From: an uncultured bacterium
Lineage (GTDB): Bacteria; Patescibacteriota; Minisyncoccia; UBA6257; 2-01-FULL-56-20
Length of the DNA: 64,000 bases
Assembly: GCA_963844965.1 (NCBI GenBank)
Contig: CAWJQC010000004.1
Coordinates: forward strand, 96,001 to 160,000
Direction: 5' to 3'
In this document: positions 22,307 through 51,625 of the stretch, piece after piece
How positions within the stretch are numbered: the stretch's first letter is position 1
Layout of the letters: each line of letters begins with the position of its first letter
Position numbers and translations under genes: made by a program
Notes under the pieces: model-generated
Database searches by the model: none
Seen by the model: only the letters and a program-made list of their open reading frames with translations
Told to the model about the DNA's origin: nothing

Positions 22307-25104
22307 ATGCCCGAAGAATTTCCTACGCGCTACGACATAAAGGAAGTTGAAACGAAAATCTACGACCTATGGGAAAAGTCTGGGTTTTTCAATCCCGATG
22401 TTTGCGTTGAAAAAGGCGCGACGAAACCGGACGCCGAACCTTTTTCCATCGTCCTGCCGCCGCCGAACGTAACCGGCACCTTGCACATCGGCCACGCCTT
22501 TGAGGACGCGATCCAAGACACCGTTGTCCGCTACGAGCGCATGCGCGGCAAGCGGACGCTCTGGGTTCCCGGGACCGACCACGCCGCCATCGCCACGCAG
22601 GCGAAAGTGGAGGAACTTCTGCGCAAGGAAGGGAAAACGAAATACGACCTCGGCCGGGAGGAATTCCTGCGGCGCGTGAACGAGTTCGCCAAAAATTCTC
22701 ATGACATCATAATCCGCCAGATAAAACGGCTCGGCGCTTCGCTTGATTGGGGCCGCGAGGCATATACGCTTGATGAAAAACGAAATCTCGCCGTCCGCAC
22801 CGCCTTTAAAAAAATGTACGACCTCGGCCTCATTTACCGCGGCGATCGTATCGTGAACTGGGACCCGAAGCTACAGACCACCGTCTCCGACGACGAGGTG
22901 GAATGGATAGACGAAACGACGCCTTTCTACTATCTGAAATATGGGCCGTTCGTCATCGGCACGGCAAGACCGGAAACGAAGTTTGGCGACAAATACGTCG
23001 TCATGCATCCGGACGACGAACGCTATAAAAAATATAAACACGGCGAAAAGATAGAACTTGAATGGATAAACGGGTCGGTCACGGCAACAATTATCAAGGA
23101 TAAGGTCATTGACGTGAATTTCGGCACGGGCGTGATGACAATCACACCATGGCACGACATGACGGACTTTGACATCGCGGAAAGGCATCGCCTGGATAGG
23201 GAGCAGATAATCGACCTGCGCGGCAAACTGCTGCCCATCGCCGGCGAATTCGCCGGAACGCCTATCGCCAAGGCCCGGCCGCTCATTATTGAAAAACTAA
23301 GAACAAAGGGTCTCGTGGAAAAGATTGACGAACATTACGCCCATCGCGTCGCCACGAACAGCCGCGGCGGCGGCCTCATCGAACCGCAGATCCTCAAACA
23401 ATGGTTCGTCAAGGTAAACTCCAAGTTCCAAATCCCAATTTCCAACCTAAAAGGGATAAAAAGCGGCCAAGAGGTGACGCTCAAGGAACTTATGAAAAAA
23501 GTCGTGGAGTCGGGGCAAATAAAAATCATACCCGGACAGTTTGAAAAAATTTACTATCATTGGATAGACAACCTGCGCGACTGGTGCATCTCGCGCCAGC
23601 TTTGGTTCGGGCACAGAATTCCGGTGTGGTATTGCCTCGCCTGCGGCGAGCCGCAAGTTGAACCGAAAATAAAATCGCGATGGTTCCTGGTGCGGCACGG
23701 AGAAACAGACTGGATCAAAGAGGGGCGGCACATGGGACATAAAGAGGTTCCCATGAATGAAACCGGCAAGCAGCAAGCGATGGTAGCCGGCGAACGGCTC
23801 GCAAACGAAAAAATTGATCTGATAATTTCTTCCACCACCATGCGCTGCAAAGAAACCGCCGAAATTATCGCGAAAAAACTGGGTGTCAAAATTATTTTTG
23901 ACGAACGTCTGCGCGAGCGCGGCAGTGGCGAATGGGAAGGACTGCTGCATGCGGAAATCAGGGAAAAATACAAACCTCTGGAGCAAAAATATGGACCGAG
24001 GAGTGGAACAAGCGCGCGCGCTATGAATTCAAACCGCCGGGAGGAGAAAATTGGCTGGAACTTGAAAAGCGCGTAATTCAATCGTTCAAAGAGCACAAAC
24101 TTCGATACGCCGACAAAAATATCGCGATTGTCACCCACGCCGGTCCGATCAGGATCCTGGAAAAAAATCTTAAAAACAAATCATTTGAAGAAGTGGTGGG
24201 ATTAATACCCGAGAATGCCGAGATTGCTAAGCTTTCAATCGCAACTGCTTCCTGTAAAAAATGTGGCAGTGATACTTACGAGCAGGATCCCGATACTCTG
24301 GATACCTGGTTCTCCTCCGCTATGTGGACGTTCTCAACTCTCGGCTGGCCTGAAAAAACCTCCGACCTCAGAACCTACCATCCAACCTCTTTGATGGCGC
24401 CGGGGTATGAAATCCTTTTCTTCTGGGTGGCGCGGATGATACTCATGAGCGGCTGTCTTTTGGGAGAAATCCCCTTCCGCACGGTTTATCTCCACGGCAT
24501 TGTGCGCGACAAGCAGGGCAAGAAATTCAGCAAATCCAGCGGTCACGCGCTTGACCCCCTGGAACTAGCCGACAAATACGGAGCGGACGCCCTGCGCATG
24601 GCTTTAATTGCCGGAGCGGCGCCGGGAAACGACGTGCAATTTGACGAGAATAGGGTCAAGGGCTACAGGAATTTTTCAACCAAGATATGGAACGTAGCGC
24701 GGTTTGTTTTACTAAACAAACCGCCGCAGACAGACGCTGACAAGACGCGGACAGCCGCGGACATTGCTGGCCGACCAGAGATAAAGGAGTTTGAGGCAAT
24801 TAAATCGGAAATAACGAAACATCTTGATGAATACGAACTGCATCTCGCAAGCGAAAAGATTTACCACTACTTCTGGCACACTTTCGCCGACAAAATAATT
24901 GAACAGGAAAAAGCCAACCTGCGGACAGCCGCCGACAAGACGCAGACAGACGCAGACATTGCGAGACGGGCAGAATCCTATGCCCTACTGGGATACATTC
25001 TCGTCGGTTCGCTTAAACTACTCCACCCTTTCATGCCGTTCGTAACAGAAGAGATTTATCAAAAATTTGAACTAAATAAGCTTCTCTTGACCGAAAAATG
25101 GTAA
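22307..25104 (+). CDS. valS: valyl-tRNA synthetase with inserted histidine-phosphatase domain; apparent frameshift at ~23985-24000 splits it into two ORFs
   Basis: HIGH (TLHIGHAF) and KMSKS-like (KFSKSSGH) motifs, DTWFSSAMWTFSTLGWPE; ORFs 22307-24076 and 23932-25104 overlap out of frame at the A5 run caaaaatatgg. Confidence 0.8.
23672..24250 (+). other. phosphoglycerate-mutase-family histidine phosphatase domain inserted between the CLAC and CKKC zinc-knuckle cysteines of ValRS
   Basis: RWFLVRHGETD (RHG catalytic His), ...RERGSGEWEG..., FKPPGGENW, VTHAGPIR motifs. Confidence 0.6.
24724..24780. repeat. GCAGACAGACGC oligo-repeat in frame in valS (QTDADKTRTAADIAGRP)
   Basis: ccgcagacagacgctgacaagacgcggacagccgcggac. 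Confidence 0.6.
24919..24965. repeat. GCGGACAGCC/GCAGACAGACGCAGAC oligo-repeat in frame in valS (LRTAADKTQTDADIARR)
   Basis: ctgcggacagccgccgacaagacgcagacagacgcagacattgcg. Confidence 0.6.
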
Positions 25105-25167
25105 ACGTTGACAAATTATGAATAGTGTGCTAGCATTGCATTAGCTTGCCACAAGGAGGGCTTTGCA

Positions 25168-25509
25168 ATGCAAATCTGGAAATGGAACAAAGAAGGGACG
25201 GGGTTGGTGAAATCGCGGTTCATGGCTTTCCCGCCGAGGAGAACTACTCTTCAAGAATTACTTCTCGGTCACCTCAAGAAAAATGATGGCAGGGGACAAT
25301 ATTGGATTGTATTCACAGAAAAAGAGGAGGGTGCAATCCGCAAGATGATATCTCCGTTTTTCCCCAAAACAATCCCGACCAGCGAAATACTTAACGCGCT
25401 TCTGTCTCCCGTGAGGAAAATATGGGCTGGCCCGCTTACCGCAACATATATTACCAAGAGTGGTATATTGGACGGCACACCTACTTTCCTAGCGATCATG
25501 ATTGACTAG
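25168..25509 (+). CDS. hypothetical protein
   Basis: ORF only. Confidence 0.35.
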   Translation: MQIWKWNKEGTGLVKSRFMAFPPRRTTLQELLLGHLKKNDGRGQYWIVFTEKEEGAIRKMISPFFPKTIPTSEILNALLSPVRKIWAGPLTATYITKSGILDGTPTFLAIMID

Positions 25510-25547
25510 CACATCATGCATTCTGCTGTGTAATACACAGACGGCAC

Positions 25548-25590: not shown

Positions 25591-25619
25591 AATCTTCCAA
25601 TTATATATAAAATGATTAT

Positions 25620-26975: not shown

Positions 26976-26980
26976 CACAA

Positions 26981-27178
26981 ATGTTTCCCATGAGACAATG
27001 CTCCATTTGCGGCAAGGGTTCGCAAATCGGAGGAAAAAGGATCCTTCTCCGCGGACACTACAATCCGACCAACAAATCCAGAAAATATCCCAATCTTCAG
27101 TGGGCGCGTGTTGAGGGCGTCCGGAAACTTATCTGCACGAATTGCCTGAAGACATTGCATAAAAATATCTCAAAATAA
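26981..27178 (+). CDS. rpmB: 50S ribosomal protein L28
   Basis: CSICGKGSQIGGKRILLRGHYNPTNKSRKYPNLQWARVEG. Confidence 0.7.
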   Translation: MFPMRQCSICGKGSQIGGKRILLRGHYNPTNKSRKYPNLQWARVEGVRKLICTNCLKTLHKNISK

Positions 27179-28014
27179 TGGCCTACCGCCCAGAACTTGT
27201 AAAATTGGTTTCGGAACGGGAAACCGAGGAGAAAGTGAAAAAACTCAGAAAGTTCATAGAAAACGCCGCAGCCGCGGATCGAAAAGAGGGTGTCCCAGTC
27301 GACACGGAGGGGCGGGTTGACATGCGGGCATTTCGCGGCCTGTATGCCGACGTTGAAAAAGACCGGGCAAACGTGCAAATGTGGTTTAAAGAAGAATTCT
27401 CCAAGAAACAGCCCGGTCAATCAGAAGGCCAATTTACGCGCGACGGAGAAAAATTGGAGCTGCTTATCCACGCCATTCTGTATAAAAATCTCCGCTCGGA
27501 ATACATCGTCGCGCGTTCAGCGCTTTTTGACGATATACATGGGGGTATAGATAACGGTCTTTTTGATAAAGAAACCGGCAGTCCGATTTGCGTGTTTGAC
27601 GATGTTGGCGATACTAACGATGAAAGATACAGGGACAAACAAAGTGGCGTTAAGAAACTCAACCTTGAAAAAGGGGGTGCCGACCTGAAATATGGGCTGA
27701 GGATGGAGAACGTGGGTGGTAAGAAAAAAATCGTGCCAAGCGCCGTTAGCAATATTCCTATTTTCTACATTGCCCTCCCCAAGGTTATGATCGATAGGGG
27801 CTTGAAGGAATTTGCTCCGTCACCAACAGAACAATCGGAATTTGAGAAAAAATTATTTGAATATATCTTGAAAGCTATGATGATTCAAATCAAAGATCTT
27901 GAAGTGTATATGCACAGCGGACGTCTCAATCAAAATCTGAGCGACAGGATCGCCGCCTTCAAAAAGACAATCATATCTCTCCAGGCCGCGAAAAGTTATC
28001 AGGCCGCGGCATAA
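27178..28014 (+). CDS. hypothetical protein (278 aa)
   Basis: ORF only; adjacent to tRNA-Pro and the mobile region. Confidence 0.4.
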   Translation: MAYRPELVKLVSERETEEKVKKLRKFIENAAAADRKEGVPVDTEGRVDMRAFRGLYADVEKDRANVQMWFKEEFSKKQPGQSEGQFTRDGEKLELLIHAILYKNLRSEYIVARSALFDDIHGGIDNGLFDKETGSPICVFDDVGDTNDERYRDKQSGVKKLNLEKGGADLKYGLRMENVGGKKKIVPSAVSNIPIFYIALPKVMIDRGLKEFAPSPTEQSEFEKKLFEYILKAMMIQIKDLEVYMHSGRLNQNLSDRIAAFKKTIISLQAAKSYQAAA

Positions 28015-28084: not shown

Positions 28085-29686
28085 CTAAAATTTTCGGGCT
28101 GTAGTATAGCGGCAGTACGCACCCTTGGGGTGGGTGTAGACCGGGTTCGACTCCCGGCAGCCCGACATAACGGAACTTGCATCAACTTTTTCAAAATCAA
28201 CGCGCTCGCTTCGCTCGCTGTCTTTATGCACGAGGGGCAAATGGAGAAGCAAATCCGTAACTACTTTCCATTCGTCTTTCCAATCCCAAAAAATTTCCCT
28301 GTCCCGCAGGCGGCGGTTCGTTCCGATTTTCCCCGCAAAGGATTTTATGGCGTCGAATTCTTCGGACGAAGCCAGTTTTGCCGCGTGAAACGCGGATATA
28401 ATCCATTCCCGCAATGGTTCGATCCAATAGTTTCCCCTCCGCCCGCAATCATCATTCTGCTTGGACAAGGAAACTTTAGTTTTGATAAGCTCGTCCTTTT
28501 TGGCAAGATAGATTTCTTTTTCAATTGAGCCGTCCAAAAAGGCGTTCACGAGCTTGTCTAATTTCTGCTCGGTTTCCTTGAGTTGGGTTTCGAGATTGCG
28601 GGCGGAATTCTCCGAAGATTGGATGCCTTCTTTTTCCCACGCTTCCACTTGAACCAGCATTTTCTCTTTCCAATCTTCGGGGATGGCGACCTCCGAGATT
28701 TTCTCTTTGAGCTGTTGCACGAGTAAATCTTCGCGCAGATAGCTTTGTGAACACGGGCCAAGCCGTTTCGTACAGCGATAATACTTGTAGAGGCCGCCGT
28801 TCCCTTTCGCGTATTGGGCGGTGATGGCCGCGCCGCACTCGCCGCAGGTGAGCAATCCGGTGAACGGGAAATAATGACGCTTCTTGGAGTGGCGCGGCTT
28901 GGCTTTGTTCCTCAAAACCTCCTGCACTTTCTTGAAGGTCGCCTCGGGAACTATCGGCAGGAAATTGCCGACATAGCTCTCGCCGTTGTGTTTTATCACT
29001 CCGAGATAGGCGGAGTTCGTGAGCATCCGTTGGAGCGTGGCCTTCGGCATGGGATTTCCCGTACCGCTCACGATGCCGAAAAACTGGAAGCGGGCGGCGA
29101 GCGTCTTTAGGGTGTGCCTCCCTTCGGCGTATTCCTCAAAAACTTTTCTGATGATTCTCGCCCGCACGGGGTCGGGTTCGATGTTCCGCGTCTTGGGATT
29201 GTTGAGGTAACCGAAGGGGGCTTTGGTCGGCCACTCGCCGCGCCGCAATTTCTGCCGGATGCCGCGCTTCACGTTCTCGGAAAGGTTATCGCTGTAATAC
29301 TTGGACTGGCCGAAGGCGACCTGCAACATGAAAAGTCCCTGCGGGGTCGGCTCAAACCAGAACGTCGGGAACTTCAGCGAGGCAATCTTCTGGGTATCGA
29401 TGAGGTAGATGATTTGGCCGCCGTCTATGGAGTTGCGAGCCAATCGGTCGGGATGCCACGCCAATATGCCGACGGGTTCTTTGCTCTCGTGAATTTTCTT
29501 GATAAGGTCGCCGAACACTTCCCTGCCCGGACTTTTCGCGCTCTTGCTCTCGATGAAGGTCTCGATAATCTTTATATGTTCCCGTTTAGCGAACTCGGCA
29601 AGCTCCGCGAGTTGGGCTTCAATGCTCATCACCTGCCGTTCCTCGTCCTCGGTGGACTTGCGGGCATAGAGGAAATATGGGGTCAT
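28085..29686 (-). CDS. large serine recombinase (integrase/invertase type); 3' end reads through the tRNA-Pro 3' end
   Basis: N-terminal YARKSTEDEERQVMSIEAQ resolvase catalytic domain, recombinase domain, zinc ribbon CGECG...YYRC, coiled coil. Last ~27 codons are the reverse complement of tRNA-Pro. Alternative C-terminus ...SQLLNAVRTYFIENPRD is preserved at 30050-30260. Confidence 0.8.
   Translation of the reverse strand: MTPYFLYARKSTEDEERQVMSIEAQLAELAEFAKREHIKIIETFIESKSAKSPGREVFGDLIKKIHESKEPVGILAWHPDRLARNSIDGGQIIYLIDTQKIASLKFPTFWFEPTPQGLFMLQVAFGQSKYYSDNLSENVKRGIRQKLRRGEWPTKAPFGYLNNPKTRNIEPDPVRARIIRKVFEEYAEGRHTLKTLAARFQFFGIVSGTGNPMPKATLQRMLTNSAYLGVIKHNGESYVGNFLPIVPEATFKKVQEVLRNKAKPRHSKKRHYFPFTGLLTCGECGAAITAQYAKGNGGLYKYYRCTKRLGPCSQSYLREDLLVQQLKEKISEVAIPEDWKEKMLVQVEAWEKEGIQSSENSARNLETQLKETEQKLDKLVNAFLDGSIEKEIYLAKKDELIKTKVSLSKQNDDCGRRGNYWIEPLREWIISAFHAAKLASSEEFDAIKSFAGKIGTNRRLRDREIFWDWKDEWKVVTDLLLHLPLVHKDSERSERVDFEKVDASSVMSGCRESNPVYTHPKGAYCRYTTARKF
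28095..28165 (+). tRNA. tRNA-Pro (anticodon GGG)
   Basis: Acceptor CGGGCUG/CAGCCCG, anticodon loop uuGGGgu, T-loop GGGTTCGACTCCC. Confidence 0.7.
28163..28321. repeat. IR-A left arm (recombinase 3' coding end), inverted copy at 30050-30208
   Basis: ~159 bp identical in inverted orientation; inner boundary at the tRNA-Pro 3' end. Confidence 0.85.
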
Positions 29687-29759
29687 ATCAATATTATAGC
29701 GTCATCACGCCATATAGCGCAATAGTGCCCTGCCTGATACGATATTCATAAGAATACTC

Positions 29760-29963
29760 ATGGATATAGCGGCTAAATTCGGACAGAAGATAAAGAGGTT
29801 GCGATTGAGCGGAAAGATGTCTCAAGGTGGCCTCGCCAAGAAGCTCGGCGTTGGTGCTTCCTATGTCAGCAAGATAGAGCGTGGCATACAAAACGTATCT
29901 CTTAAGGGCGTGGAGAAATTAGCCGATGCGTTGGGCGTACCACCCGACCGCCTCTTGAAATAA
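29760..29963 (+). CDS. XRE-family helix-turn-helix transcriptional regulator
   Basis: KRLRLSGKMSQGGLAKKLGVGASYVSKIERG; divergent from recombinase. Confidence 0.75.
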   Translation: MDIAAKFGQKIKRLRLSGKMSQGGLAKKLGVGASYVSKIERGIQNVSLKGVEKLADALGVPPDRLLK

Positions 29964-30049
29964 CTGGCCTCGTCCGAAAGTTTCGGATAGATAAAATCCG
30001 CAAGGGAAAAATCGGGACAAAGATTCTTTCTTGTCGCAATTCACTTGCG

Positions 30050-30208
30050 ACGAACCGCCGCCTGCGGGACAGGGAAATTTTTTGGGATTGGAAAGACGAA
30101 TGGAAAGTAGTTACGGATTTGCTTCTCCATTTGCCCCTCGTGCATAAAGACAGCGAGCGAAGCGAGCGCGTTGATTTTGAAAAAGTTGATGCAAGTTCCG
30201 TTATGTCG
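30050..30208. repeat. IR-A right arm
   Basis: Reverse complement of 28163-28321. Confidence 0.85.
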
Positions 30209-30580
30209 CAGTTGCTGAACGCTGTACGAACCTATTTTATCGAAAATCCGAGGGATTAGCCACCGGATTTACCCCTTCATTCACCCCTTCATTCGGGTAT
30301 GCTCGGAATGAAGGGGTAGCAAGTCCTGATTGCCCTGAAAACGCTGGGCTTTTTGACTCTCGCCGGACAAAACCAGAAGTCCTACTTCACTCCGGTTTGC
30401 CTAGTCAATCACCCCGTCAATCACGATTGACTACCCTGACGGCCATTCCGCCCTTACGAGACCTCGCTTTTCTCAAAAATCCTGACCCCCGACAATACCC
30501 CTAAACGGGTCTGTGCTCAGCCCCTCAGCCGCTCACTGTTGTTCGGGCTTCGGGGCTTCGCGTATGGCGCGCCCAAATTC
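30203..30580. repeat. IR-B left arm (~380 bp), inverted copy at 32562-32942; abuts IR-A right arm at shared TGTCG
   Basis: Near-perfect reverse-complement identity. Confidence 0.85.
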
Positions 30581-30719
30581 CTCCCCCAACCCCTCCTTTG
30601 GGGCGCGCCGAGGGCGGTTGCGGCAACCCTTGGAACAGGGTATGGTTGAGATATCCACGCATAGGCGATGAAGCTCGCCGCAACCGCCCTTAGGGGCTGA
30701 TAGCTTCTATCTCAAAAAG

Positions 30720-30923
30720 ATGGAAGTTTTTTATTTATTGCTCATCATAGGATTAATCTTCGGCTCGCTCGGTGCGCTCATGGCCTACCTCATCACCTAC
30801 AAGGAATGGATGCATCATTACACATCGCCGAAGATTCCCCGACGTATAGCTCTTGAGACGGCGGTGTTCACACTCGTCTTTTTCATTGTGGTCGCCATGC
30901 TCGTCGGGGCATTCGTCAAATAG
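30720..30923 (+). CDS. small two-TM membrane protein
   Basis: Hydrophobic 67-aa ORF. Confidence 0.35.
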   Translation: MEVFYLLLIIGLIFGSLGALMAYLITYKEWMHHYTSPKIPRRIALETAVFTLVFFIVVAMLVGAFVK

Positions 30924-30959
30924 CGGTTTCTTGCCTCCAGCCCCCCGATACGCTACGAC

Positions 30960-31919
30960 TTACAATATCGCGTTGAATAGATAGCCCGTAAAGACAATCC
31001 CTAACGCTACGATGCCAGCGAAAATGAGTATGAGTTTCGGCTTCATCACCTTTTTCAAAATCATGAACTCCGGCAGGGATAGCGCGGTAACGGACATCAT
31101 AAAAGCAAGTGTGGTGCCCATCGCCACGCCTTTTTCGGTTAATGCGCTCACGAGCGGAATAACGCCTGCGGCGTTGGAATAAAGCGGAATACCGATAAGG
31201 ACGGCGAGCGGCACGGCATACCACGTTCCGCCTCCTGCGTAGCGGGCGATGAGTGAGGCGGGGACGTATCCGTGAATCCACGCACCCACGCCGATGCCGA
31301 CAACGACGTACAACCAGACCCTTTTCAAAATATTCAGAACGTAATCCTTGGCGTAGACGACCCGCTCCTTCCTCGTCATGTGGGGCGAATCAAAGTTCCC
31401 ATTCGCGGCATTTTGATAGATAAACGGCTCGACCAGATTCTCCATTTTCATTTTGCCAATGATTGCTCCCGAAAGCATGGCGATGACAAGACCGCTCGTT
31501 ATATAGATTGCCGCTATCTTCCAACCGAAAAGACCAAGGAGCATCACGAGCGCAACCTCGTTAATCATCGGCGAGGCGACGAGGAAAGAGAAAGTTGTTC
31601 CTAAGGGCACGCCCGCCTGCACGAATCCCAAAAACAACGGGATGGCCGAGCAGGAGCAGAACGGCGTGACGATGCCGAGGAGCGAAGCAAGCACGTTTCC
31701 GACGTACTGTTTTTTATGCGCCAAGACCGCACGCACTTTCTCCGGCGGCAAATAGGAACGGACGATGGACACGGCGAAGATGATGACCGCAAGGAGTAGA
31801 AATATCTTCGTCGTATCAAGGATAAAGAAATCTACCGCGCTTCCAAGGAGTGTGTTCGGCGCGATGCGGAACAGGCCATAAGTCATCCAGTCGGCCAATA
31901 ACTGGAGGGGGTAAAACAT
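30960..31919 (-). CDS. permease (COG0701/DUF318 family, ArsP-like)
   Basis: Multi-TM with paired CxC/CSC motifs (PFCSCSAIP); follows the ArsR and thioredoxin-like genes in an operon-like arrangement. Confidence 0.55.
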   Translation of the reverse strand: MFYPLQLLADWMTYGLFRIAPNTLLGSAVDFFILDTTKIFLLLAVIIFAVSIVRSYLPPEKVRAVLAHKKQYVGNVLASLLGIVTPFCSCSAIPLFLGFVQAGVPLGTTFSFLVASPMINEVALVMLLGLFGWKIAAIYITSGLVIAMLSGAIIGKMKMENLVEPFIYQNAANGNFDSPHMTRKERVVYAKDYVLNILKRVWLYVVVGIGVGAWIHGYVPASLIARYAGGGTWYAVPLAVLIGIPLYSNAAGVIPLVSALTEKGVAMGTTLAFMMSVTALSLPEFMILKKVMKPKLILIFAGIVALGIVFTGYLFNAIL

Positions 31920-31921
31920 CG

Positions 31922-32164
31922 TTATTTTATATTTTGGGAGATTATCTGCCTTATCTTGTCTTTGTCGGGAACCGACCCGACCAATACCGCCTTGCCATCC
32001 ATTGCCAAGACGGGGCTGGACAGCAAACCCATCGCGGCGATTTTCTGAATGTCGTTCACATACTCGACCTCCGTCCCCAAGTTCAATTCCTCGACCGCCT
32101 TTTTAGTCAGCTCAAACAGCTTTTTGCACTTTTGACAGCCCGAACCCAACACTTGAATCTTCAT
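31922..32164 (-). CDS. thioredoxin-fold redox-active disulfide protein 2-like
   Basis: MKIQVLGSGCQKC...; 80 aa. Confidence 0.6.
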   Translation of the reverse strand: MKIQVLGSGCQKCKKLFELTKKAVEELNLGTEVEYVNDIQKIAAMGLLSSPVLAMDGKAVLVGSVPDKDKIRQIISQNIK

Positions 32165-32168
32165 GTTG

Positions 32169-32489
32169 TTATTTGATTTGCTTTATCATCTGTACAAATT
32201 TCCGACCTTTCTTCGTTAATCGGTATTCCACGAACGTGCTTTCTTTGGAGCTTTCGATAATGCCTCCGTCGGCCAAATCCTTGAGATGATGGGAGAGGAG
32301 GGTTTGCGACAATCCCGTATGCGTTTCGAGGTCGCAGACGCAATGAGGGGCTTTATACAAAAGCGAGAGCATGGCGATTCTGCTTGGGGCGGAAACGAGC
32401 TTCATCTGCTCCGCCACGGGGTTGAACTCCGCGAGGTCAACCTTATCGTGAGGCCGTACCTTGCATACACACCGCTTATATATGAACAT
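32169..32489 (-). CDS. arsR: ArsR/SmtB-family metalloregulatory repressor
   Basis: HCVCDL metal-binding motif, LSHHLKDL recognition helix. Confidence 0.7.
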   Translation of the reverse strand: MFIYKRCVCKVRPHDKVDLAEFNPVAEQMKLVSAPSRIAMLSLLYKAPHCVCDLETHTGLSQTLLSHHLKDLADGGIIESSKESTFVEYRLTKKGRKFVQMIKQIK

Positions 32490-32561
32490 GCGTTCATATT
32501 ATAGCGATGCCCAGAGTGCGTCAAGTATGACCACGGCCATGCGGCCGTGAGCTATTTTGGG

Positions 32562-32942
32562 GGAGGAATTTGGGCGCGCCATACGCGAAGCCCCGAAGCC
32601 CGAACAACAGTGAGCGGCTGAGGGGCTGAGCACAGACCCGTTTAGGGGTATTGTCGGGGGTCAGGATTTTTGAGAAAAGCGAGGTCTCGTAAGGGCGGAA
32701 TGGCCGTCAGGGTAGTCAATCGTGATTGACGGGGTGATTGACTAGGCAAACCGGAGTGAAGTAGGACTTCTGGTTTTGTCCGGCGAGAGTCAAAAAGCCC
32801 AGCGTTTTCAGGGCAATCAGGACTTGCTACCCCTTCATTCCGAGCATACCCGAATGAAGGGGTGAATGAAGGGGTAAATCCGGTGGCTAATCCCTCGGAT
32901 TTTCGATAAAATAGGTTCGTACAGCGTTCAGCAACTGCGACA
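32562..32942. repeat. IR-B right arm
   Basis: Reverse complement of 30203-30580. Confidence 0.85.
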
Positions 32943-33164
32943 ATAAATAAAAACGGCGAGGTAAACTCGTCGCCTTTAGGTCCCACTTTAGACGTCCCGG
33001 CCAACTGCCAGGTGGGCTCCTCAGTCGGACTTACCGGGATCAACTGTTTTAAGAGCCGACCCACCGAGTCTGACTATTGCGGATCCCTAAATAGATTGTT
33101 TGATCCGGAATCTACAAGTGGGATTGTTTTTATCATAACATAAAGCGAGGTGAACGCAATGTGA

Positions 33165-33235
33165 ACCCCCACACCCAACGAGGAGTGCTGGTAACAACGC
33201 ACAAGGCATTGCTCCTCGTTAGGTGTGGGGGTGAA
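33165..33235. repeat. palindromic hairpin element (cccccacacccaacgaggag...ctcctcgttaggtgtggggg), same family as 8275-8345
   Basis: Imperfect 20-bp stems. Confidence 0.65.
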
Positions 33236-33454
33236 TTCAACGAAAAAGTGCATAAGTTACAAACCAGTGATTGATAAAGCACAGGTTTTCGGTTATAAAG
33301 CTTAATATATGCCCGGTACTACAACTTTGACGACGCCACTCTGTGCTTATATGTTTTATTCGGCAACAGCGGCCATAATAAACGGCCCGCACAAAGTTTT
33401 GTTACCAGGCAAACGGTCAAGGTCGCAGCATAAATCAAAGTTGTAGCACTGGGT

Positions 33455-36212: not shown

Positions 36213-36684
36213 CTAGCGCTTCGCCCACTGGGGAGCCCTTCGTGCTTTCTTTAAGCCGTATTTCTTTCTTTCCACCATGCGCGGGTCGCGGCGGAGGTAG
36301 CCGAGCTTACTCAGGCGCTTTTCAAAATCGGGGTTCTTCAGGGCGAGCGCGCGGGCAAGTCCCAAACGCACCGCCTCGGCTTGGGCATTGATGCCGCCGC
36401 CATAGACCTTAGCCGACACGTCATACTTGTCACCGAGCTTCATTTTCTCCAGCGGCGCGAAAGCCAGTAATATGCAAGCGCGACAGGTCAAAGTAATTCT
36501 TGTATCCTTCTTCGTTCACCAAAAACTTTCCGTGCCCGCCTAAAACTCGCACGCGCGCAATGGCGGTCTTTCTTCTTCCCACACCCTCAACGTATCTGTC
36601 CGGTTTTTTCACCGCCTTAACCGCGGAGACCTCTTTGGTTTCCTTCGTTTGGATCTTTTTTGCTGGTTCTTTCTTTGTTGGCAT
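36213..36684 (-). CDS. rpsI: 30S ribosomal protein S9 (two ORFs joined by apparent frameshift ~36430-36490)
   Basis: GRRKTAIARVRV... N-terminal part and ...YLRRDPRMVERKKYGLKKARRAPQWAKR C-terminal part, in different frames. Confidence 0.75.
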
Positions 36685-36708: not shown

Positions 36709-37055
36709 TTATTTATCAACGAAGATCAAATTCTTCAACCTTTTTTGATTCAGAAAATTTTTGGGCAGCATGTGGCGCACCGTTTCCCTGAGCGTTTTCT
36801 CCGGATCTTTGGTAAAAACCTGCTCAAAAGTCTTTTCTTTCAGGGTGCCCCATGTAGCCGGTATGGCGATAATAGATCTTCTCTTTGAACTTTTTTCCGG
36901 TAACAACGAGGATCCTTGCAATTTTTCACGTATACTTTGTCACCACCGACGAGCCGCCGCTCGTATTTCGGGCTTTTCTTACCCTGTAAAATCAAAGCTA
37001 TCTCCGAGGCCAGTCGCCCCAATATCTTGTTTTTGGCATCTATGTGATAATCCAC
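36709..37055 (-). CDS. rplM: 50S ribosomal protein L13 (two apparent +1 frameshifts within ~75 bp near 36840-36930; GTG start)
   Basis: IDAKNKILGRLASEIA... then VTGKKFKEKIYYRHTGYMG (third frame) then ...VRHMLPKN. Confidence 0.7.
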
Positions 37056-37058: not shown

Positions 37059-37127
<69 letters not shown>

Positions 37128-39872: not shown

Positions 39873-39948
<76 letters not shown>

Positions 39949-40482: not shown

Positions 40483-42195
40483 CTAATTTACCGTTATTTT
40501 CACATGATTCGGGTTCGCGGGCAGGCTCCAAAGCCAGATCGGCCAGAGTGAAACCTTCGCCGAAGCAAGGTGAGGCAATGCGGCGATTGCAGAGCGCACG
40601 TCGCTCACATTTTTGCCGAGAATGCTTGACTTGAAATCGTCGGCGGAGAAATCGGGTTTCAGATCGCCCGAGGCGGAAACGTCAAAAGTTTCTTTGCCAT
40701 TTTTAAAATCCACCTTTATCTGGCTGTAGTTGATCTGCGGATTGCCGTCAAAAACCATATTCGGGTTGCTCGCCGCCGCCGCCGCAGAAAGGAAAGAATC
40801 CAAACTTTTTTCTCCAGTCTCGCGGAAACACAGAACTAGAATATTTGCTTCTCCCAAGACGCTGAAACTGCCGCTCGCATTGGTATCTTCATCCACCTTC
40901 AGTTTCGTGACATTGAATTGCTCGGCGCCGTCCAAAACCTTGCAATCCGTCGGATAAGCGGCGGTAAGAGAATTATCAAGGGCGCTACGCAAGGCCGCAG
41001 TAGTTTTATCCTTGGCTTTCGCAATGTCGTCCGCGGTGGGCACCGCTTTTTCGCCGATGAAACCGCCGCTTGTCCCGCTCTTCAGTTCCCCGTAAAAACC
41101 GTCGTAGCGCGGTGAACCCTTGAAACCGGGGATAGTAAGCTTGGAAACCGGCCCGACATTGTATCCCTCGCCGGCAACGTCGGCTACCACGGTGGCATCT
41201 ATCGACGACGGTATGATATTGCCGTTATTGATTTGCGCGCCGGGAACAATCACGCTTGCCGGAATTCTGAAAATCTTGCCGTCTGGGGTCGCGAACCGCG
41301 TGGTTGCCACCAGTGTTTGGGGCGCTGAGCTGTAAGCGTTGTAGATAGTGATGGTTCCCTGCGCTTTTTGCGATACATCCTTATTTGAAGATGCTGGGTA
41401 AAGCTGAACGGTGTTCTTGGTATCGGTCACTATCCAGCCGGGCAGAATATTCTTGTTAAAATCAACGTTTGAAACGGACTTATCCGCCGAGAAAGCGTGC
41501 TCGTAACTCCACGGCGTCCTCGTAAAAGTTATCACTACGTCGGCTTTGTTGAAATAGTTGTTAACGATCAAAAAGATGGCGACGAGAATCAAAATCGAAA
41601 CTCCTATCAAGAGCACCGGTTTGAAAATTTTACGCCTCTGTTCCGCTGTTATGACGGGAATTCTACTAATCTTCCCAACGGCCGGCTCTTTCACGATCTT
41701 TTCCACCACAGCTTCCTGCTTAGGAGGCGCGCTTACCGGAGCTGCTTCTTTCTCGTAAAGCACGGCTGGGGGTTGCTCTTCTTTTTCTTTGCGGCCTCTT
41801 TTTGGCTGGATGGGCGCTTCCGGCTTATCTTCTTTCGAGCCGCGCGGAACTATGTCGGAAAGCGAAGAACTCTTGCGGTCTCCCTCAAAAAATGAATGGG
41901 TAGCGACGAGATTCGCGGACTTGGACAACGCCAGAATCTCATCGTCCACGGACTCCACAAAAACATTCTTGCCGCTCGCAGCGGCTTCCCTCCTTATTAA
42001 ATGAAAATTGCTCACAGACTCCTTGAGCCGTGAATTTTTCGGCACGACGAGCGTCAAATCCGTCTCTTCGTCGCCGATGATTTTTTCCACAACCTCCGCC
42101 ACGCCTTCGTTTTTGTCTATGAAAAGTTTTTTCACGGAGTATTCGCGAATAATGCGAATTTTGTTTGGATAGTAACCGCTAAAGCCGATTCGCAT
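40483..42195 (-). CDS. hypothetical single-pass membrane protein (cytoplasmic N-terminal region, large extracytoplasmic domain)
   Basis: TM helix at ~aa 200; no known domain recognised. Confidence 0.4.
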   Translation of the reverse strand: MRIGFSGYYPNKIRIIREYSVKKLFIDKNEGVAEVVEKIIGDEETDLTLVVPKNSRLKESVSNFHLIRREAAASGKNVFVESVDDEILALSKSANLVATHSFFEGDRKSSSLSDIVPRGSKEDKPEAPIQPKRGRKEKEEQPPAVLYEKEAAPVSAPPKQEAVVEKIVKEPAVGKISRIPVITAEQRRKIFKPVLLIGVSILILVAIFLIVNNYFNKADVVITFTRTPWSYEHAFSADKSVSNVDFNKNILPGWIVTDTKNTVQLYPASSNKDVSQKAQGTITIYNAYSSAPQTLVATTRFATPDGKIFRIPASVIVPGAQINNGNIIPSSIDATVVADVAGEGYNVGPVSKLTIPGFKGSPRYDGFYGELKSGTSGGFIGEKAVPTADDIAKAKDKTTAALRSALDNSLTAAYPTDCKVLDGAEQFNVTKLKVDEDTNASGSFSVLGEANILVLCFRETGEKSLDSFLSAAAAASNPNMVFDGNPQINYSQIKVDFKNGKETFDVSASGDLKPDFSADDFKSSILGKNVSDVRSAIAALPHLASAKVSLWPIWLWSLPANPNHVKITVN

Positions 42196-42256: not shown

Positions 42257-43396
42257 TTACTCCTGTATCAGCCAGTGCAGGCGCCTGCGCAGTTTATTGT
42301 TTATATCCGAATCGCTCTTGTCGCGGTAAAATTCAAAAAATGGCGCGAGTTTAATGAATATATCCCGCTCGGCGAGTGGCCACTCGCCGAAATCCGCCCG
42401 AAAACCTCCTTTTTCAAGAGCTTTCGCGAGCGGAAGGTCCGAGAAAGCAAGCCGCCCGACGGCCCGCGACGCGTCAAATGGAACCGGAACCGTCGAATAC
42501 AGGAACACCCGACCCTTGAGCCGCGACTTCTTGACCTCGGCCAAAAAATTATCAACCTCCGGCCGCAGAATTCGGTAAAAAGAACCGACAAAGGCGGGAG
42601 AAGCGTCTTTCCTCATAAAGGCGCCGTATAGCTTCATTGACGCCGGCTGGCTCACTTGGAGCGCCGAGATAATCGCCTTCCAGAACGACTTCATCCGCCA
42701 CTCTATTTCTCCCGAATAAACAGCGTTGCCCCAAGCGGCCTTGTCCAGTGTGAGGTAGGAAGTTTTTTCTTCGCCGACCAAAAGCAAATTGACCGGCAAC
42801 GATTCCACCCAGGCGAGAGAACGCAGGCCGGCAAGATGCGAGCCGGTAAAGAAAAAGCCTTCTTTGGAATTGAATAGGTCCTTGAGGCCGTAGAAAACCG
42901 GGCGCGTCGTGAACGTAAGCTCCAGCACCCCCTCAACCGTTTTGCCGCCAAAGCCAACGGGGTTCAAGACGGCGTGGCCGTCCATTTTGAAGTTGGTGAT
43001 CTTGGAATTAACGAGAATGGTATCAAGCTCGTCCGCCCCCAGGCGCGCGCTTGCGTTCTTCCTCTCATTATTGAACAATCTGCCGATTGCCTGTGCGAGA
43101 AGATTTTCCAGCTCCACGAGCGTAAGCGAATGAGAGACGGCGGACGTATCGCGCGCGAGCTTGACCGGAAAAGTTGTCGTGTGTATGAGCTCGGGCGCGG
43201 CCGAGACAATGACTTTCCTCCCGCGCAAATTCCGCGCCCGCGCGGCGCCGATTTTCTTCAAAGGAAAATCGTGCCAAATTTTTTCAAGACGCAAATTTCT
43301 TTCGCCGTCAACGCTCAAAAGCAAGGCGGAGGTTTTATCCTCGGCAACCTCCAAAAGCAAAAATTTTTCCTTGCCCCGTAGTAAATTTCTAAACAT
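42257..43396 (-). CDS. hypothetical protein, possibly actin-like ATPase fold (PilM/FtsA-like)
   Basis: N-terminal LLLEVAEDKTSALLLSV resembles the phosphate-1 region of actin-like ATPases; weak. Confidence 0.3.
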   Translation of the reverse strand: MFRNLLRGKEKFLLLEVAEDKTSALLLSVDGERNLRLEKIWHDFPLKKIGAARARNLRGRKVIVSAAPELIHTTTFPVKLARDTSAVSHSLTLVELENLLAQAIGRLFNNERKNASARLGADELDTILVNSKITNFKMDGHAVLNPVGFGGKTVEGVLELTFTTRPVFYGLKDLFNSKEGFFFTGSHLAGLRSLAWVESLPVNLLLVGEEKTSYLTLDKAAWGNAVYSGEIEWRMKSFWKAIISALQVSQPASMKLYGAFMRKDASPAFVGSFYRILRPEVDNFLAEVKKSRLKGRVFLYSTVPVPFDASRAVGRLAFSDLPLAKALEKGGFRADFGEWPLAERDIFIKLAPFFEFYRDKSDSDINNKLRRRLHWLIQE

Positions 43397-47099: not shown

Positions 47100-47880
47100 C
47101 TAATTTGGGCGTTTAGATTTTCCTCTAATCCGAGGATGGAGCTGCCACACGGCAAAGCAACTTGCGCTTGGCTTCGTAGTCACAGCCAGAAATCCCCTGT
47201 TTTCCAAGGAACTTTTGGCCGTGACTACGATTTACGATTTTCAATGTACGCCAACATTATACATCCAAATAGTCTATTTTGTCAATCACCGCGGGCTAAA
47301 GCCCGCGGCTTGTGTTCGGCTCCTGTTCCCACTGGTTTCTGATATATTCTCTCATCGCTTTTTCGTTTTGACGGCCAACGGTTTCGGCAAAGTAACCATC
47401 CTGCCACAAGCTGTCTCCCCAGAGGAATTCTTCCAGCTCGGGAAATTCTTTTCTGACAGCCCTGGACGTACCGCCTTTGAGATAAAACACCGCTTTGGCA
47501 ACCGTCAGGGTAGCAGGAATTTGAAGCAATAGATGGACATGGTCGGGCATTATCTGCGCTTCATGGATGAACCATTTATTCATCTTGGCGGCTTGAAAGA
47601 ACAATGTCTTGAGTCGCCCGACCATGTCCCCTCGCAGTATCGAGCGGCGGTACTTTGGGCAGAAAACAACGTGGTACAAACATCGCGTATAGCTGTGGTT
47701 GCTTGGCCAGAATCCAGAGGGCATTATCTTCATTATCGCACCGGCAGAAACCAGTGGGAACAGGCAAATAAGCCCTCCGCCCCTCGCTTCGCTCGGGGCT
47801 ACGGGGTCGCCTTATCCTCGGCCTAAAGGCCGGGGCTTGCGGCGGAGCGGGTCAATGTACTATCTTGTCCTTGTTTTACA
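47100..47880. mobile_element. IS200/IS605-family element (tnpA only); approximate limits
   Basis: HUH Y1 transposase ORF; GC hairpin caccgcgggctaaagcccgcggc at 47287-47309; 20-bp inverted repeat cctgttcccactggtttctg at 47322 and 47745. Confidence 0.6.
47296..47733 (-). CDS. tnpA: IS200/IS605-family transposase TnpA (HUH Y1)
   Basis: ...YHVVFCPKYRR...HVHLLLQIP...GYFAETVG. Confidence 0.85.
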   Translation of the reverse strand: MKIMPSGFWPSNHSYTRCLYHVVFCPKYRRSILRGDMVGRLKTLFFQAAKMNKWFIHEAQIMPDHVHLLLQIPATLTVAKAVFYLKGGTSRAVRKEFPELEEFLWGDSLWQDGYFAETVGRQNEKAMREYIRNQWEQEPNTSRGL

Positions 47881-48003: not shown

Positions 48004-49257
48004 CAGGTTCTCAAAACCTTCTAGTGCCTTTGATTTCCCATGCTCCCTAATTTTCTCCAGCGCCTTCGCCTCAATCTGGCGGATGCGCTCGCGCGTGACG
48101 CCGAAGGCCTTTCCCACTTCTTCAAGCGTGTGGTTCACGCCATCGTCCAAGCCGAAACGCATCTTGAGAATTTTCTGTTCGCGCTCCGCGAGGTCCACCA
48201 GAATTTCCTTTATCAAATCGCGGAGCAGGGCGTGCGCGGCGAGCTGAGCCGGTGTTTGGTTCCGCTCGTCGGGGATGAAATCGGAGAGCGTGGAGTCCTC
48301 CTCGTCGCCGATGGGAGTTTCAATGGACAGAACCTCCTGCGAAATTTTTTGGATGTGCCGCACCTTGTCCACTTCCAACCCCATCTCGGCGGCGATTTCT
48401 TCCGCCAAGGGTTCACGCCCGAGTTCCTGGATCAGCTGGCGGCGCGCCTGCGTGTATTTGGAAATCGTCTCCACCATGTGCACCGGAATGCGCACCGTGC
48501 GCGACTGGTCGGCGAGTGCCCGCGTAATCGCCTGCCGAATCCACCACGTCGCATACGTTGAAAATTTGAAACCCTTGCGGTAATCAAATTTCTCCACGGC
48601 GCGCGAAAGCCCGATATTCCCCTCCTGTATCAAGTCAAGAATGGAGAGGTGCGGCGTGCGGTTCACGTAACGCTTGGCGATGGAAACCACGAGTCGCAGG
48701 TTGGCTTTCATAAGTTTCTGGCGGGCGTCTTCGTCCCCACGCTCGGCGCGCTTCGCCAATTCTTTTTCTTCTGCCTTAATTAAGAGCGGGGTCTTCCCTA
48801 TTTCCTTGAGATATATCTGAACCGCGTCCGGCACCTCTCCTTCCATCGCCAAGGCGTCGTCCAATTCTTTTTGGGCGAGTTCTTCCTTTGAAAAGCCGAC
48901 GAGTGCGCTTGTTTCTATGACTTTGATGCCGGCTTTTTCCAGACGGTCGTACACTTCATCCAAAAACGCCACGTCGTCTTCTATTTTCGGAAAGTAATAG
49001 AGAATCTCATTATCTGTCACAAAACCGCGCGGCTTCCCGCGTTCCAAAAGTTCCTTCAGGGATTCTTCGCGCGCCTCGGCCGCCGCCGCGGCTTTCCTGC
49101 CTAAACGGCGGGTCTTGCGCTTGGCTTTCTTCGGCTTCGCCGAAGACCGTCGTTCCCCCCTGTGCTTGCGGTACTTCCCGCGTTTTTTCCCGGACTTTTT
49201 ATTTTCCATAACTTTATCATAAAAAACTCCCAAAACTTCACACCATATACGAAGCAA
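47998..49257 (-). CDS. rpoD: RNA polymerase sigma-70 factor
   Basis: Regions 1.2-4 present: ...[40 protein letters not shown]... Confidence 0.85.
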
Positions 49258-49341
49258 TTATGGACATTTTATTAATAGAATACAGGTGTTTCCATAATTT
49301 TTCAACCCAATCGCAGAAGTTAAATGAACAAGCGCGAAACA

Positions 49342-49818
49342 TTAAAACCAGCTGGCGTTATTCACAATCAAACCTCCCAAGTATTTGCTTAACAATACAA
49401 TAACAAGGGCGACGGCGGCGTGCTCAACAATTATCGGCAAAGGAGCCACCCGTTTCCTTTCGGCGACGGCGCGGCTCACTAACGACAAAACCGCCAGGCC
49501 GTACACAAGAGAGGCAAGAATCGCAATATTTAAGGGAAGGAGGGCGACAATAATGACAAATCCAAGCGAAACAATCAGCCGGCTGACGAAATTGGTGAAA
49601 GTGGATATCCAAACGTTGCGTGAATTCTGCCCTTCCGATTCCTGAAATATATGGATCCCAAGAGAGTCGGATAAATTATCCGCGATGGCGATCACAAACA
49701 AGCCGTCTATGATGCCCACCTTGGCGTTGACCGCCGAGCTGAGTCCCGTAATCAGGGCCATGTTGGTGATTATCGCCGACGCACTTCCGAAACTTATCCT
49801 GGTTAGGGGCAATTTCAT
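49342..49818 (-). CDS. small multi-TM membrane protein (VIT/DUF125-like?)
   Basis: Hydrophobic; weak resemblance only. Confidence 0.3.
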   Translation of the reverse strand: MKLPLTRISFGSASAIITNMALITGLSSAVNAKVGIIDGLFVIAIADNLSDSLGIHIFQESEGQNSRNVWISTFTNFVSRLIVSLGFVIIVALLPLNIAILASLVYGLAVLSLVSRAVAERKRVAPLPIIVEHAAVALVIVLLSKYLGGLIVNNASWF

Positions 49819-49879
49819 TTATTAAAATCGAAAAAAATAATTTAACCGATCCAGATTACGATTTGGATAGTGATATTTT

Positions 49880-51625
49880 CTAAGATTCGTACACGGGCGC
49901 TGACAGGCCGTTCAGCTTCTCATTGATGCTCTGCAATTCCCGAATGGCGGATTCGCGGCCGGCTTCGTCGCCCACATCCTCGCGCTGCTTGACCTCATCC
50001 GCGAGCCGGCGTCTTTCTTCTTTGCAATGTTCTTTGATCAGCTCCGTTTTCAGCTCACCAAGTTCCTGCGCGCCGATATCAGCCGCACCAAGCACGATAA
50101 AATCCAAGAATCTCGTCCAAGGCGGGATCCGGAAGCTTCCTTTCTCCCTTTTGGAGAGCTTCCAAAATTTTTCCGCAATCCTTCGCAAGATAAGGAACAA
50201 TGTCATCCAAAATGCCGTAGTCGCTCTTCGCAACCGCCGCGCGCAGGAGAGTTTCGCTCACAAGTTCGCGCCGCGAATATTTCCGCGCGTGCGCATTCGA
50301 GACGTCCGTATCTTTTGAAAAGTCGCTGGTTTTAGATTCCGGTTTCGGCAAATTCATTTTTTCTGATTCCTCAATCAAAATCTTTTCGTCAATGCGCGCG
50401 CGCTTGGAAAGTTCCTTGAGCCAGAAACTTCTCTCAATCGGACTGGAGATGTTCACGATCTTGCCCAGCACAAGCCGCACATTATGGAGACCCCTGCGGC
50501 TGGAATAATCGGCTGAATTGCCTTTTTCCAAGTACTTGTCAAGATAGAATGCCATCGCCGGCACGGCTTCCTTGATGGCTTTCGTGAGATTTTCCGCTCC
50601 GGCTTCCGCGGCTTCGGCGGGATCCTTGAAGTCGGCGAACGTCGCGACCTTGACGCTGAAATCGTTGGCTTCAGCGAGGTCAATCGCCCGCTCCGAGGCC
50701 GCGGAACCGGCCGCGTCGGAATCAAAACTCAAAATAATTTCCTCGGTAAGGCGCTTAATACTCTAAGATGGTCGGCCGTAAGCGCGGTGCCGGAAGTCGC
50801 CACGGCATTCTTCACTCCGGCTTGCCAGCTCGCGAGAAAATCCATCTGCCCCTCCACGAGGAAAACCGAGCCGGCGTCGTGTATGGAATTTTTGCTTTTC
50901 CAAAATCCGTAGAGGAGACGGGACTTGTTAAAGATTGGCGTCTCCGGCGAATTCACGTACTTGCCGACGTTCTCGTTCTCAAACTGAGGAAGCAGCCGCC
51001 CGGTAAAGCCGACCACCTTGCCGAAATGATTGTGGATGGGAAACATTATCCGGCCGCGGAACCTGTCAAGAAGCAGGCCGCGCTCGGTTTTCACCGCGAG
51101 CCCGGCGCGTAAAATATCGTCCGGCGCGTAGCCCCTGTTCAAAAAATGCATGGAGAGCGCTTCCGGCTCGTTCGGCGCCCAGCCCAATTCAAACTCGTCT
51201 ATGGTTTCGGGTTTTAGCTGCCGGCCCACGAGATACTTCTTCACGACGGGAGTGCTCGTGAGCGCTTTGATATAAAATTCTTTCGCGGCGTTCTGAAGTT
51301 CAAATAAAAGTCCCGTATATTTGTGTTCGGCGGGATCAAGCCGCCTTAACTCCACGCCCGCCTTCTCGGCCAAAATCCGCAAGGCCTCGCCGAATTCCAG
51401 ATTCTCGTAGCGCATGACGAATCCGAAAATGTCGCCGCCCAAACCGCAGCCGAAGCAATGCCAGGACTGCCGTTCCGGCGAAACCATGAAAGAAGGCGTC
51501 TTCTCCTTATGGAAAGGGCAGGATGCCTTGAAATTTTTTCCGGCCGGCTGCAAATTCAAATACCCGCGCAGGAACTGCACTATGTCCAATTTCTCCTTGA
51601 TAAGCTCGGTGGTGGAGGAAGGCAT
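49880..51625 (-). CDS. dnaG: DNA primase (three ORFs joined by two apparent frameshifts at ~50730 and ~50100-50230)
   Basis: Zinc-binding CPFHKEKTPSF...CFGCG, Toprim EGQMDFLAS...SFDSDAAG continuing across the frame change. Confidence 0.7.

Follow-up and report, generated by a model that had tools for sequence, protein, structure and literature searches.

Seven single-base frame breaks in a Patescibacteria contig are very probably uncorrected long-read consensus errors, several of them at GGNNCC sites

Results

Five genes in the window, the 64,000-nucleotide stretch of DNA analysed here, are interrupted by seven single-base frame breaks (one each in valS, rpsI and tail-fibre gene 1, two each in rplM and dnaG), which are very probably uncorrected errors of a long-read consensus and not biology. 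All of the breaks listed in the original prediction are present, and single-base indels do give full-length proteins, as it had proposed: seven such edits suffice and leave no internal stops, and the repaired proteins measure 932 aa (ValRS), 156 aa (S9), 114 aa (L13), 581 aa (DnaG) and 814 aa (tail-fibre-like protein). The direction of the breaks is mixed, with five extra bases and two missing bases. The breaks had been located approximately; they are real, but their true sites lie up to ~50 nt from the predicted positions (Table 1).

Table 1. Interrupted genes, frame-break sites and possible substitution errors in the window
Feature	Position	Strand	Description	Original prediction
valS, ValRS with inserted His_Phos_1 domain	22307..25104	+	ORFs 22307-24076 and 23932-25104, in different frames	
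valS break, 1 base missing	23985..23989	+	best candidate an A5 run (true A6); bounded by homology to ~23976-23992	
rpsI, ribosomal protein S9	36213..36684	-	ORFs 36430-36684 and 36213-36491	
rpsI break, 1 extra base	~36460..36467	-	best placed at ACTGGC (window 36466) by nucleotide alignment	
rplM, ribosomal protein L13	36709..37055	-	three frames	
rplM break 1, 1 extra base	within 36905..36925	-	GGATCC at 36910-36915 lies in the interval	
rplM break 2, extra C	36843..36845	-	GGGGCAC[C]CTG; unambiguous; adjoins a GGCACC (GGNNCC) site	
dnaG, primase	49880..51625	-	ORFs 50729-51625, 50079-50732 and 49880-50233	
dnaG break 1, 1 base missing	~50750..50755	-	inside GGCGCC	50730
dnaG break 2, 1 extra base	50099..50102	-	ggaTTTTatc (true T3; A4 on the + strand)	50150
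Tail-fibre-like surface protein gene 1	2180..4625	-	ORFs 2973-4625 and 2180-3139	
Tail-fibre break, candidate site	3086..3092	-	GGTTACC in the window, presumed GGTACC; bounded by homology to ~3060-3100	3130
Possible substitution error	27022..27027	+	GGTTCG in the window, GGTTCC in a Logan contig (ERR11596056)	
Similar substitution case	27276-27281		GGATCG in the window, GGATCC in Logan	

Several lines of evidence indicate that the interrupted reading frames belong together. Pfam profiles and the proteins of intact relatives are continuous over every break, and uninterrupted orthologues occupy the same positions in the relatives (L002, L003, L004 and L005). The out-of-frame parts retain 63-93% amino acid identity to relatives, and the corrected frame is free of stops. 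Once repaired, L13, S9 and DnaG are 83-85% identical to their counterparts in relatives. No second copies of L13, S9, ValRS or DnaG were found in the window. In NCBI/ENA, the fragment proteins of the split genes occur on one contig only (216,488 bp).

In valS, where the repair adds one A, two profiles are shared between the consecutive ORFs: the first matches positions 1-260 of tRNA-synt_1 and 2-105 of His_Phos_1, and the second continues with 260-413 and 102-182, respectively. The first frame keeps the conserved EKY motif, and agreement in the second begins at WTEEW...PPGGE. Dozens of ValRS proteins of 900-950 aa with a His_Phos insert cover 99-100% of the repaired ValRS and share its architecture. 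For tail-fibre gene 1, which is repaired by deleting one base, the homologues P0251, P0252 and P0255 align over the ORF junction.

The neighbouring genes rpsI and rplM are repaired by deletions, of one base and of two single bases, respectively. The Ribosomal_S9 profile is divided between positions 1-32 in one rpsI ORF and 40-121 in the other; 131 residues of the repaired protein are identical to the 154-aa S9 of L002, and over its C-terminal part the identity to relatives is 93%. The extra base at ACTGGC, which contains no homopolymer run, gives ...LHITAFAPLEKM; another placement is the T3 run at 36460-36462. A tblastn search placed rplM in frames -3, -1 and -2, and the gene must therefore contain two breaks. 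The repaired L13 shares 97 of its 114 residues with that of L002, which is intact at the same length. The A6 and G4 runs originally named as the rplM sites are not where the gene is broken (Table 1). The placement of break 2 is firm because the relatives' sequence ..YMGHLKEK.. requires cac and then ctg, and for break 1 the best-fitting candidate is an extra C after GATC. The rpsI break and both rplM breaks are crowded into ~460 bp beside GTAGAAA tandem repeats, a cluster that a uniform error process leaves unexplained.

Compared with the intact 580-aa DnaG of a relative (P0126), the dnaG reading passes through frames -1, -3 and -1, and thus contains two breaks. One insertion and one deletion restore a protein with 484 residues identical to P0126; its middle part has 77% identity to relatives. 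The intact relative L005, whose DnaG has 580 aa, carries GGCGCC at the position of break 1. The readings at this position are AAGCGCCTT in the window, AAGGCACTT in Logan contig L006 and CGGCGCCTT in L005.

Independent consensus builds of the same strain are available as Logan contigs, which are k-mer assemblies of runs ERR10755942 and ERR11596056. Over 16,002 bp their identity to the window is 99.75-100%, with 11 differing loci. They may be built from the window's own reads, which would make them a separate consensus of shared data. At dnaG break 1 contig L006 is frameshifted too, but its garbled sequence differs from that of the window, and its DnaG is also truncated, at 298 aa. Contigs L006, L007 and L090 carry frameshifting indels of their own. 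The Logan indels fall where the window is in frame (at ~24288, 50458 and 41570, and at a garbled GGTTCC site near 42490) and disrupt valS, dnaG and a conserved 570-aa ORF, indicating that the underlying reads are indel-noisy. A clean copy of this strain's rplM, rpsI or valS break regions was not found; the best S9 in a set of 5.8 billion proteins was 87% identical, and a protein search of JGI data returned no near-identical strain.

Homopolymers account for a minority of the breaks. The original prediction had tied the frameshifts to homopolymer runs, a link that holds for valS (A5) and dnaG break 2 (A4) but not for the other five of the seven, which lie outside runs of at least 4 nt. Within homology-covered coding sequence, none of 67 homopolymers of at least 6 nt was frameshifted. 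Longer runs were not preferentially broken, in contrast to classical homopolymer error. The absence of breaks in long runs fits newer nanopore chemistry, for which long homopolymers are no longer the main problem.

A disproportionate share of the errors is found at GGNNCC palindromes. Two of the seven breaks certainly occur at such sites (rplM break 2 and dnaG break 1); two more, rplM break 1 (GGATCC) and the tail-fibre break (GGTTACC), are candidates only; and three (valS, rpsI and dnaG break 2) lie away from them. Sites with an intact GGNNCC in the window, extended by ±1 nt, make up 1.9% of bases and contain 4 of the 11 differences between the window and the Logan contigs (binomial estimate ~4e-5); when one-substitution variants of the motif are included, the count rises to 7 of 11 (P = 0.002). 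Logan contig ends adjoin GGNNCC in 5 of 14 cases. The motif was proposed post hoc, from the first four Logan contigs; in the three contigs fetched after it had been proposed, four of five new differences were at GGNNCC-type sites. A scheme with two motifs, GGYRCC and GATC, was dropped, and GGNNCC retained, because a new GGTTCC mismatch fits GGNNCC better. GATC is a possible second error motif.

Methylation of the NlaIV type is known to target GGNNCC, and the error pattern points to nanopore miscalls that are linked to the motif and probably to its methylation. The 64-kb window yielded no methyltransferase gene. Both motifs are rarer in the window than expected, with 192 GGNNCC sites (261 expected) and 140 GATC sites (249 expected); as a sign of modification, the scarcity of GGNNCC is only suggestive.

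Most genes in the window are intact, and the claim that the errors affect all ORF calls was therefore overstated. A further 13 genes in synteny with L002 each occupy one frame, and in ~30 further ORFs the Pfam matches are not split between neighbours; the remaining ORFs have no family match. A homology scan of 26.6 kb revealed no additional breaks. The detectable frameshift rate is ~1 per 4-9 kb, corresponding to six in the 26.6 kb of testable coding sequence and seven in 64 kb. The ORF pairs 35818/36003 and 46473/46495 gave no evidence of split genes, with no family match on either ORF. Two other suspicious regions had an ordinary explanation: the 5.7-8.5 kb interval, which lacks long ORFs, carries small toxin-antitoxin genes, and the ORFs at 31.9-33.3 kb encode thioredoxin and ArsR, both complete, without signs of more split genes. 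A 67-aa ORF following a fluoride riboswitch had no CrcB match, and its truncation is not demonstrable. Codon-usage frame plots discriminated too weakly, at ~50% GC, to detect hidden frameshifts.

Discussion

We consider it very probable that the window belongs to the metagenome-assembled genome of a Patescibacteria bacterium of the Paceibacteria type, built from long reads, very probably nanopore reads only, with a consensus that accurate reads did not correct. On this reading the seven breaks are leftover consensus errors, and the five genes are intact in the organism. The errors are not randomly placed: medium homopolymers (A5, A4) hold a minority and GGNNCC palindromes a disproportionate share, with others possibly at GATC. 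Base modification at a motif, if mis-read by the basecaller or polisher, would yield such a pattern; the part played by methylation is putative. Among species-representative genomes, the nearest are 'MFD' MAGs, and the assembly may be linked to the Danish project that produces nanopore-only MAGs from soil and sediment. In the long-read MAG workflow of that project, Microflora Danica, Nanopore reads alone were assembled with Flye and polished once with Medaka (PMC12313526), and residual indel errors in nanopore-only assemblies are reported to leave truncated or split ORFs (Sereika et al. 2022, PMC9262707).

The original prediction favoured indel errors over pseudogenes and programmed frameshifts, and the relatives, the stop-free corrected frames and the discordant assemblies support that choice. 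It is most unlikely that the strain, or its dominant variant, has pseudogenised valS, rpsI, rplM and dnaG through genome decay or in the presence of compensating copies. The breaks are truly in the deposited sequence, a second assembly (L006) likewise has a truncated 298-aa DnaG, and genomes are reduced in Patescibacteria, all of which would suit such decay. However, L13, S9, ValRS and DnaG are indispensable and without a second copy in the window, and the out-of-frame segments show no decay, having acquired no stops and kept their identity to relatives. The differing sequences of the window and L006 at dnaG break 1 are incompatible with a single real allele, and the Logan contigs are frameshifted elsewhere, where the window is intact. 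Programmed recoding, with full-length proteins produced through ribosomal frameshifting or transcriptional slippage, is extremely unlikely. The A5 of valS and the T4 of dnaG break 2 (mRNA sense) could be slippery, but the five extra bases require a +1 shift and the two missing bases a -1 shift, the heptamer X XXY YYZ is absent at the sites inspected, valS included, and no relative is frameshifted at any site, so that nothing is conserved. Transcriptional slippage is known only with runs far longer than those found here, and we know of no precedent for two shifts less than 70 nt apart in a 114-codon ribosomal protein gene.

The differences at GGNNCC might instead be real polymorphism, arising where restriction pressure favours the loss of sites and co-existing strains are merged into a chimeric consensus. 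The scarcity of GGNNCC and GATC is in keeping with this, as are the substitutions GGTTCC/GGTTCG, GGATCC/GGATCG and GGTGCC/AGTGCC, each of which abolishes a site. Polymorphism may contribute to some of the substitutions, but it can account neither for the essential-gene frameshifts at GGNNCC (rplM break 2 and dnaG break 1) nor for the Logan indels that break valS, dnaG and the conserved 570-aa ORF, and we regard it as a very unlikely explanation of the differences. There is also little chance that even one break is genuine, whether as a two-piece ValRS divided in the histidine-phosphatase insert or as a product of mutational hot spots at GGNNCC under restriction pressure. The evidence speaks against both the genuine valS split and the hot spots.

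The breaks serve mainly as a warning about data quality. For this genome they affect gene calls, counts of pseudogenes, estimates of completeness and claims of a "missing essential gene". Searches for errors that consider only homopolymers would overlook most of those described here, and GGNNCC sites, possibly with GATC sites, may hold silent substitution errors too. If the link to the motif is true, the errors themselves disclose a motif that this uncultivated Patescibacteria organism probably methylates.

The pattern can be set against several known systems. As in the pseudogenes of reduced or decaying genomes, the reading frames of genes are disrupted; unlike those pseudogenes, the genes here carry no further lesions, are essential and single-copy, and are strongly conserved. 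The arrangement of two overlapping ORFs for one protein resembles prfB (+1), dnaX (-1) and IS transposases, but the sites in the window are unconserved, have no slippery heptamer or stimulatory element, occur several to a gene and run in mixed directions. The pattern also resembles the residual errors of nanopore-only assemblies: single-base indels fragment conserved genes, the contig is long (216 kb) and the nearest relatives are nanopore-only MAGs. Classical descriptions of nanopore error concern long homopolymers, whereas most of the present breaks are in runs of 1-3 bases. Systematic nanopore basecalling errors are known at Dam (GATC) and Dcm (CCWGG) sites in enterobacteria. As with those errors, one short palindrome recurs over several consensus builds, with both indels and substitutions; unlike Dam and Dcm methylation, that of GGNNCC is putative here.

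Frame breaks in five genes

The original prediction listed valS, rpsI, rplM, dnaG and tail-fibre gene 1 as split by frame breaks, and Pfam profile continuity and comparison with relatives' proteins show that every one of these splits is real. The valS gene is represented by two overlapping ORFs in differing frames, over which both the tRNA-synt_1 profile (positions 1-260 in the first ORF and 260-413 in the second) and the His_Phos_1 profile (2-105 and 102-182) are divided. The S9 profile falls on two ORFs (1-32 and 40-121), and the L13 profile is divided into positions 4-62 and 58-110 with a third frame in between. Alignment of dnaG with an intact 580-aa relative (P0126) runs through frames -1, -3 and -1. 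For tail-fibre gene 1, alignments of the homologues P0251, P0252 and P0255 bridge the junction, and the conserved module YCISGANCITAWPSGG...VTSVFG is encoded in the downstream frame, ahead of any start codon.

As predicted, single-base indels suffice for repair: seven such edits yield uninterrupted proteins, namely ValRS (932 aa), tail-fibre protein (814 aa), L13 (114 aa, 97 residues identical to L13 of the syntenic relative locus L002), S9 (156 aa, 131 identical to the 154-aa S9 of L002) and DnaG (581 aa, 484 identical to P0126). Break positions were set by comparison with relatives; the predicted coordinates were approximately right, though exact positions differ. Of the seven breaks, just two or three fit the attribution to homopolymers. 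Relatives' proteins cover 26.6 kb of the coding sequence, and of the 67 runs of at least 6 nt in this part none is frameshifted.

Positions of the frame breaks in the window
Break	Position	Strand	Change	Remarks
valS	23985-23989	+	one base missing	A5 run is best candidate
rpsI	about 36466 (ACTGGC), or T3 run 36460-36462	-	one extra base	
rplM break 1	within 36905-36925	-	one extra base	interval includes GGATCC
rplM break 2	36843-36845	-	one extra base	extra C in GGGGCAC[C]CTG, unambiguous
dnaG break 1	about 50750-50755	-	one base missing	in GGCGCC; relative L005 reads GGCGCC there
dnaG break 2	50099-50102	-	one extra base	T4 run
tail-fibre gene 1	about 3060-3100	-	one extra base	candidate GGT[T]ACC

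Sequencing error or biology

Relatives carry continuous genes at every break site: rplM and rpsI are intact in L002, L003 and L004, dnaG is intact in L005, and dozens of ValRS proteins of 900-950 aa that share the window's phosphatase insert are continuous. In the window's genes, the displaced parts are still highly conserved and contain no stops. The strongest evidence on the question comes from Logan assemblies of public runs with the same strain: seven contigs from ERR10755942 and ERR11596056, 99.75-100% identical to the window, together span 16,002 bp of it. One of these, L006, is likewise frameshifted at dnaG break 1, but reads GTATTAAG-GCACTTACC where the window has GTATTAAGCGC-CTTACC; as judged from these two assemblies, the site is garbled and not one allele. 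L006 and two further contigs, L007 and L090, have indels of their own at places where the window keeps its frame and agrees with relatives. Examples are the T of GATC dropped at 50458, GGATCC[C] at 24288, T6 versus T5 at 41570 and, near 42490, a garbled GGTTCCGGTTCC. From the different frameshifts produced by different consensus methods, we infer that the source data behind both were indel-noisy long reads.

Programmed frameshifting at the breaks has a vanishingly small probability and is excluded because the sites are unconserved in relatives, the shift directions are mixed and slippery signals are absent. Pseudogenisation, scarcely more credible, is excluded because essential genes are affected, with no sign of decay and with different readings between assemblies. 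The intact relatives, the conserved displaced parts and the discordant Logan contigs support the prediction of sequencing or assembly errors, and the frame breaks are almost certainly an assembly-quality artefact with no biological feature behind them.

The further expectation that all ORF calls are affected was not borne out; among genes with homologues, most calls are sound, since the 13 other genes syntenic with L002 are all single-frame, a scan using every ORF from 84 related loci flagged no sites but those in rpsI, rplM and dnaG, and Pfam matches in about 30 further ORFs are unsplit across neighbouring ORFs. The scan missed valS because its insert has diverged. The remaining ORFs have no family match.

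Gene content

Pfam scans and relatives identify the window as a chromosome segment of Paceibacteria-type Patescibacteria (CPR). Its genes include a RecG-like helicase, two tail-fibre-like surface proteins, TsaD, ValRS, PrsW, HSP20, a serine-recombinase island, an S13-S11-S4-RpoA-L17-L13-S9 block, AlaRS, RpoD and DnaG. Its fragment proteins are present on a single NCBI/ENA contig only, of 216,488 bp.

In the ValRS (22307-25104), a complete histidine-phosphatase (His_Phos_1) insert (about 23670-24260), with the catalytic motifs RHGET and THAG, separates the catalytic domain's two CxxC knuckles. This architecture is common to dozens of Patescibacteria protein clusters (900-1080 aa); in L002, the closest syntenic relative, about 125 aa of unrelated sequence are inserted at the site, and other relatives lack an insert. 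A literature search for ValRS with a histidine-phosphatase insert found no describing paper among those covered. The RecG-like helicase (15-1913), with a PD-(D/E)XK nuclease domain between DEAD and Helicase_C, is a further case of domain insertion in a housekeeping enzyme.

The island (28085-33400) adjoins tRNA-Pro(GGG) and is missing from L002. It contains a serine recombinase (28085-29686), a fluoride riboswitch (30655-30716), an ArsP-type permease, a thioredoxin and an ArsR regulator; the 67-aa ORF after the riboswitch has no CrcB/Fluc match. The tail-fibre-like genes (2973-4625 and 8555-11680) are paralogous, with near-identical N-terminal and internal segments, and HicA/HicB-like genes lie between them. 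A RelE/ParE-type toxin-antitoxin cassette occurs twice (5787-6222 and 7812-8242), with the toxin truncated in one copy, and an IS200-type Y1 transposase gene (47296-47733) lies between rpoD and the cluster downstream of AlaRS.

Distribution and proposed origin of the errors

Three of the seven breaks (rpsI, rplM) lie within about 460 bp and adjoin GTAGAAA tandem repeats, which are found again at 39.9 kb; a plausible cause would be locally reduced usable coverage during polishing. Short repeats of this type flank the S13-L17 block (37060-37100 and 39882-39940), and the three-break cluster starts just past the 37.06-kb copy. Both ends of a 2.8-kb Logan contig, L001, lie within such repeats.

In the first four Logan contigs, errors and contig ends cluster at GGNNCC palindromes. 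This idea arose post hoc and was then tried on the three later contigs: each of the three L089 mismatches occurs at a GGNNCC-type site, L090 has its multi-base garble at GGTTCCGGTTCC, and only one of the new differences is a homopolymer. Intact GGNNCC ± 1 nt, which makes up 1.9% of bases, accounts for 4 of the 11 differences between the window and Logan (binomial estimate about 4e-5), or 7 of 11 if one-substitution variants count (P = 0.002). Two of the seven window breaks are certainly at GGNNCC (rplM break 2 and dnaG break 1) and two possibly (rplM break 1 and the tail fibre). Both GGNNCC and GATC are under-represented in the window. At 27022-27027 and 27276-27281 the window has GGTTCG and GGATCG, and a Logan contig from ERR11596056 has GGTTCC and GGATCC; these differences may be substitution errors at GGNNCC or site-destroying polymorphisms.

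Among species-representative genomes, the nearest are 'MFD' MAGs, from a project that used Nanopore-only Flye assemblies with one Medaka round (PMC12313526). Many of the errors in the window would arise as nanopore miscalls linked to GGNNCC and to a putative base modification there. Apart from this tie to a motif, which is its practical point, and the side observation on ValRS, the artefact is of low interest. Restriction-modification of the NlaIV type is known to use the motif GGNNCC, and nanopore basecalling is known to produce motif-specific miscalls where bases are modified.
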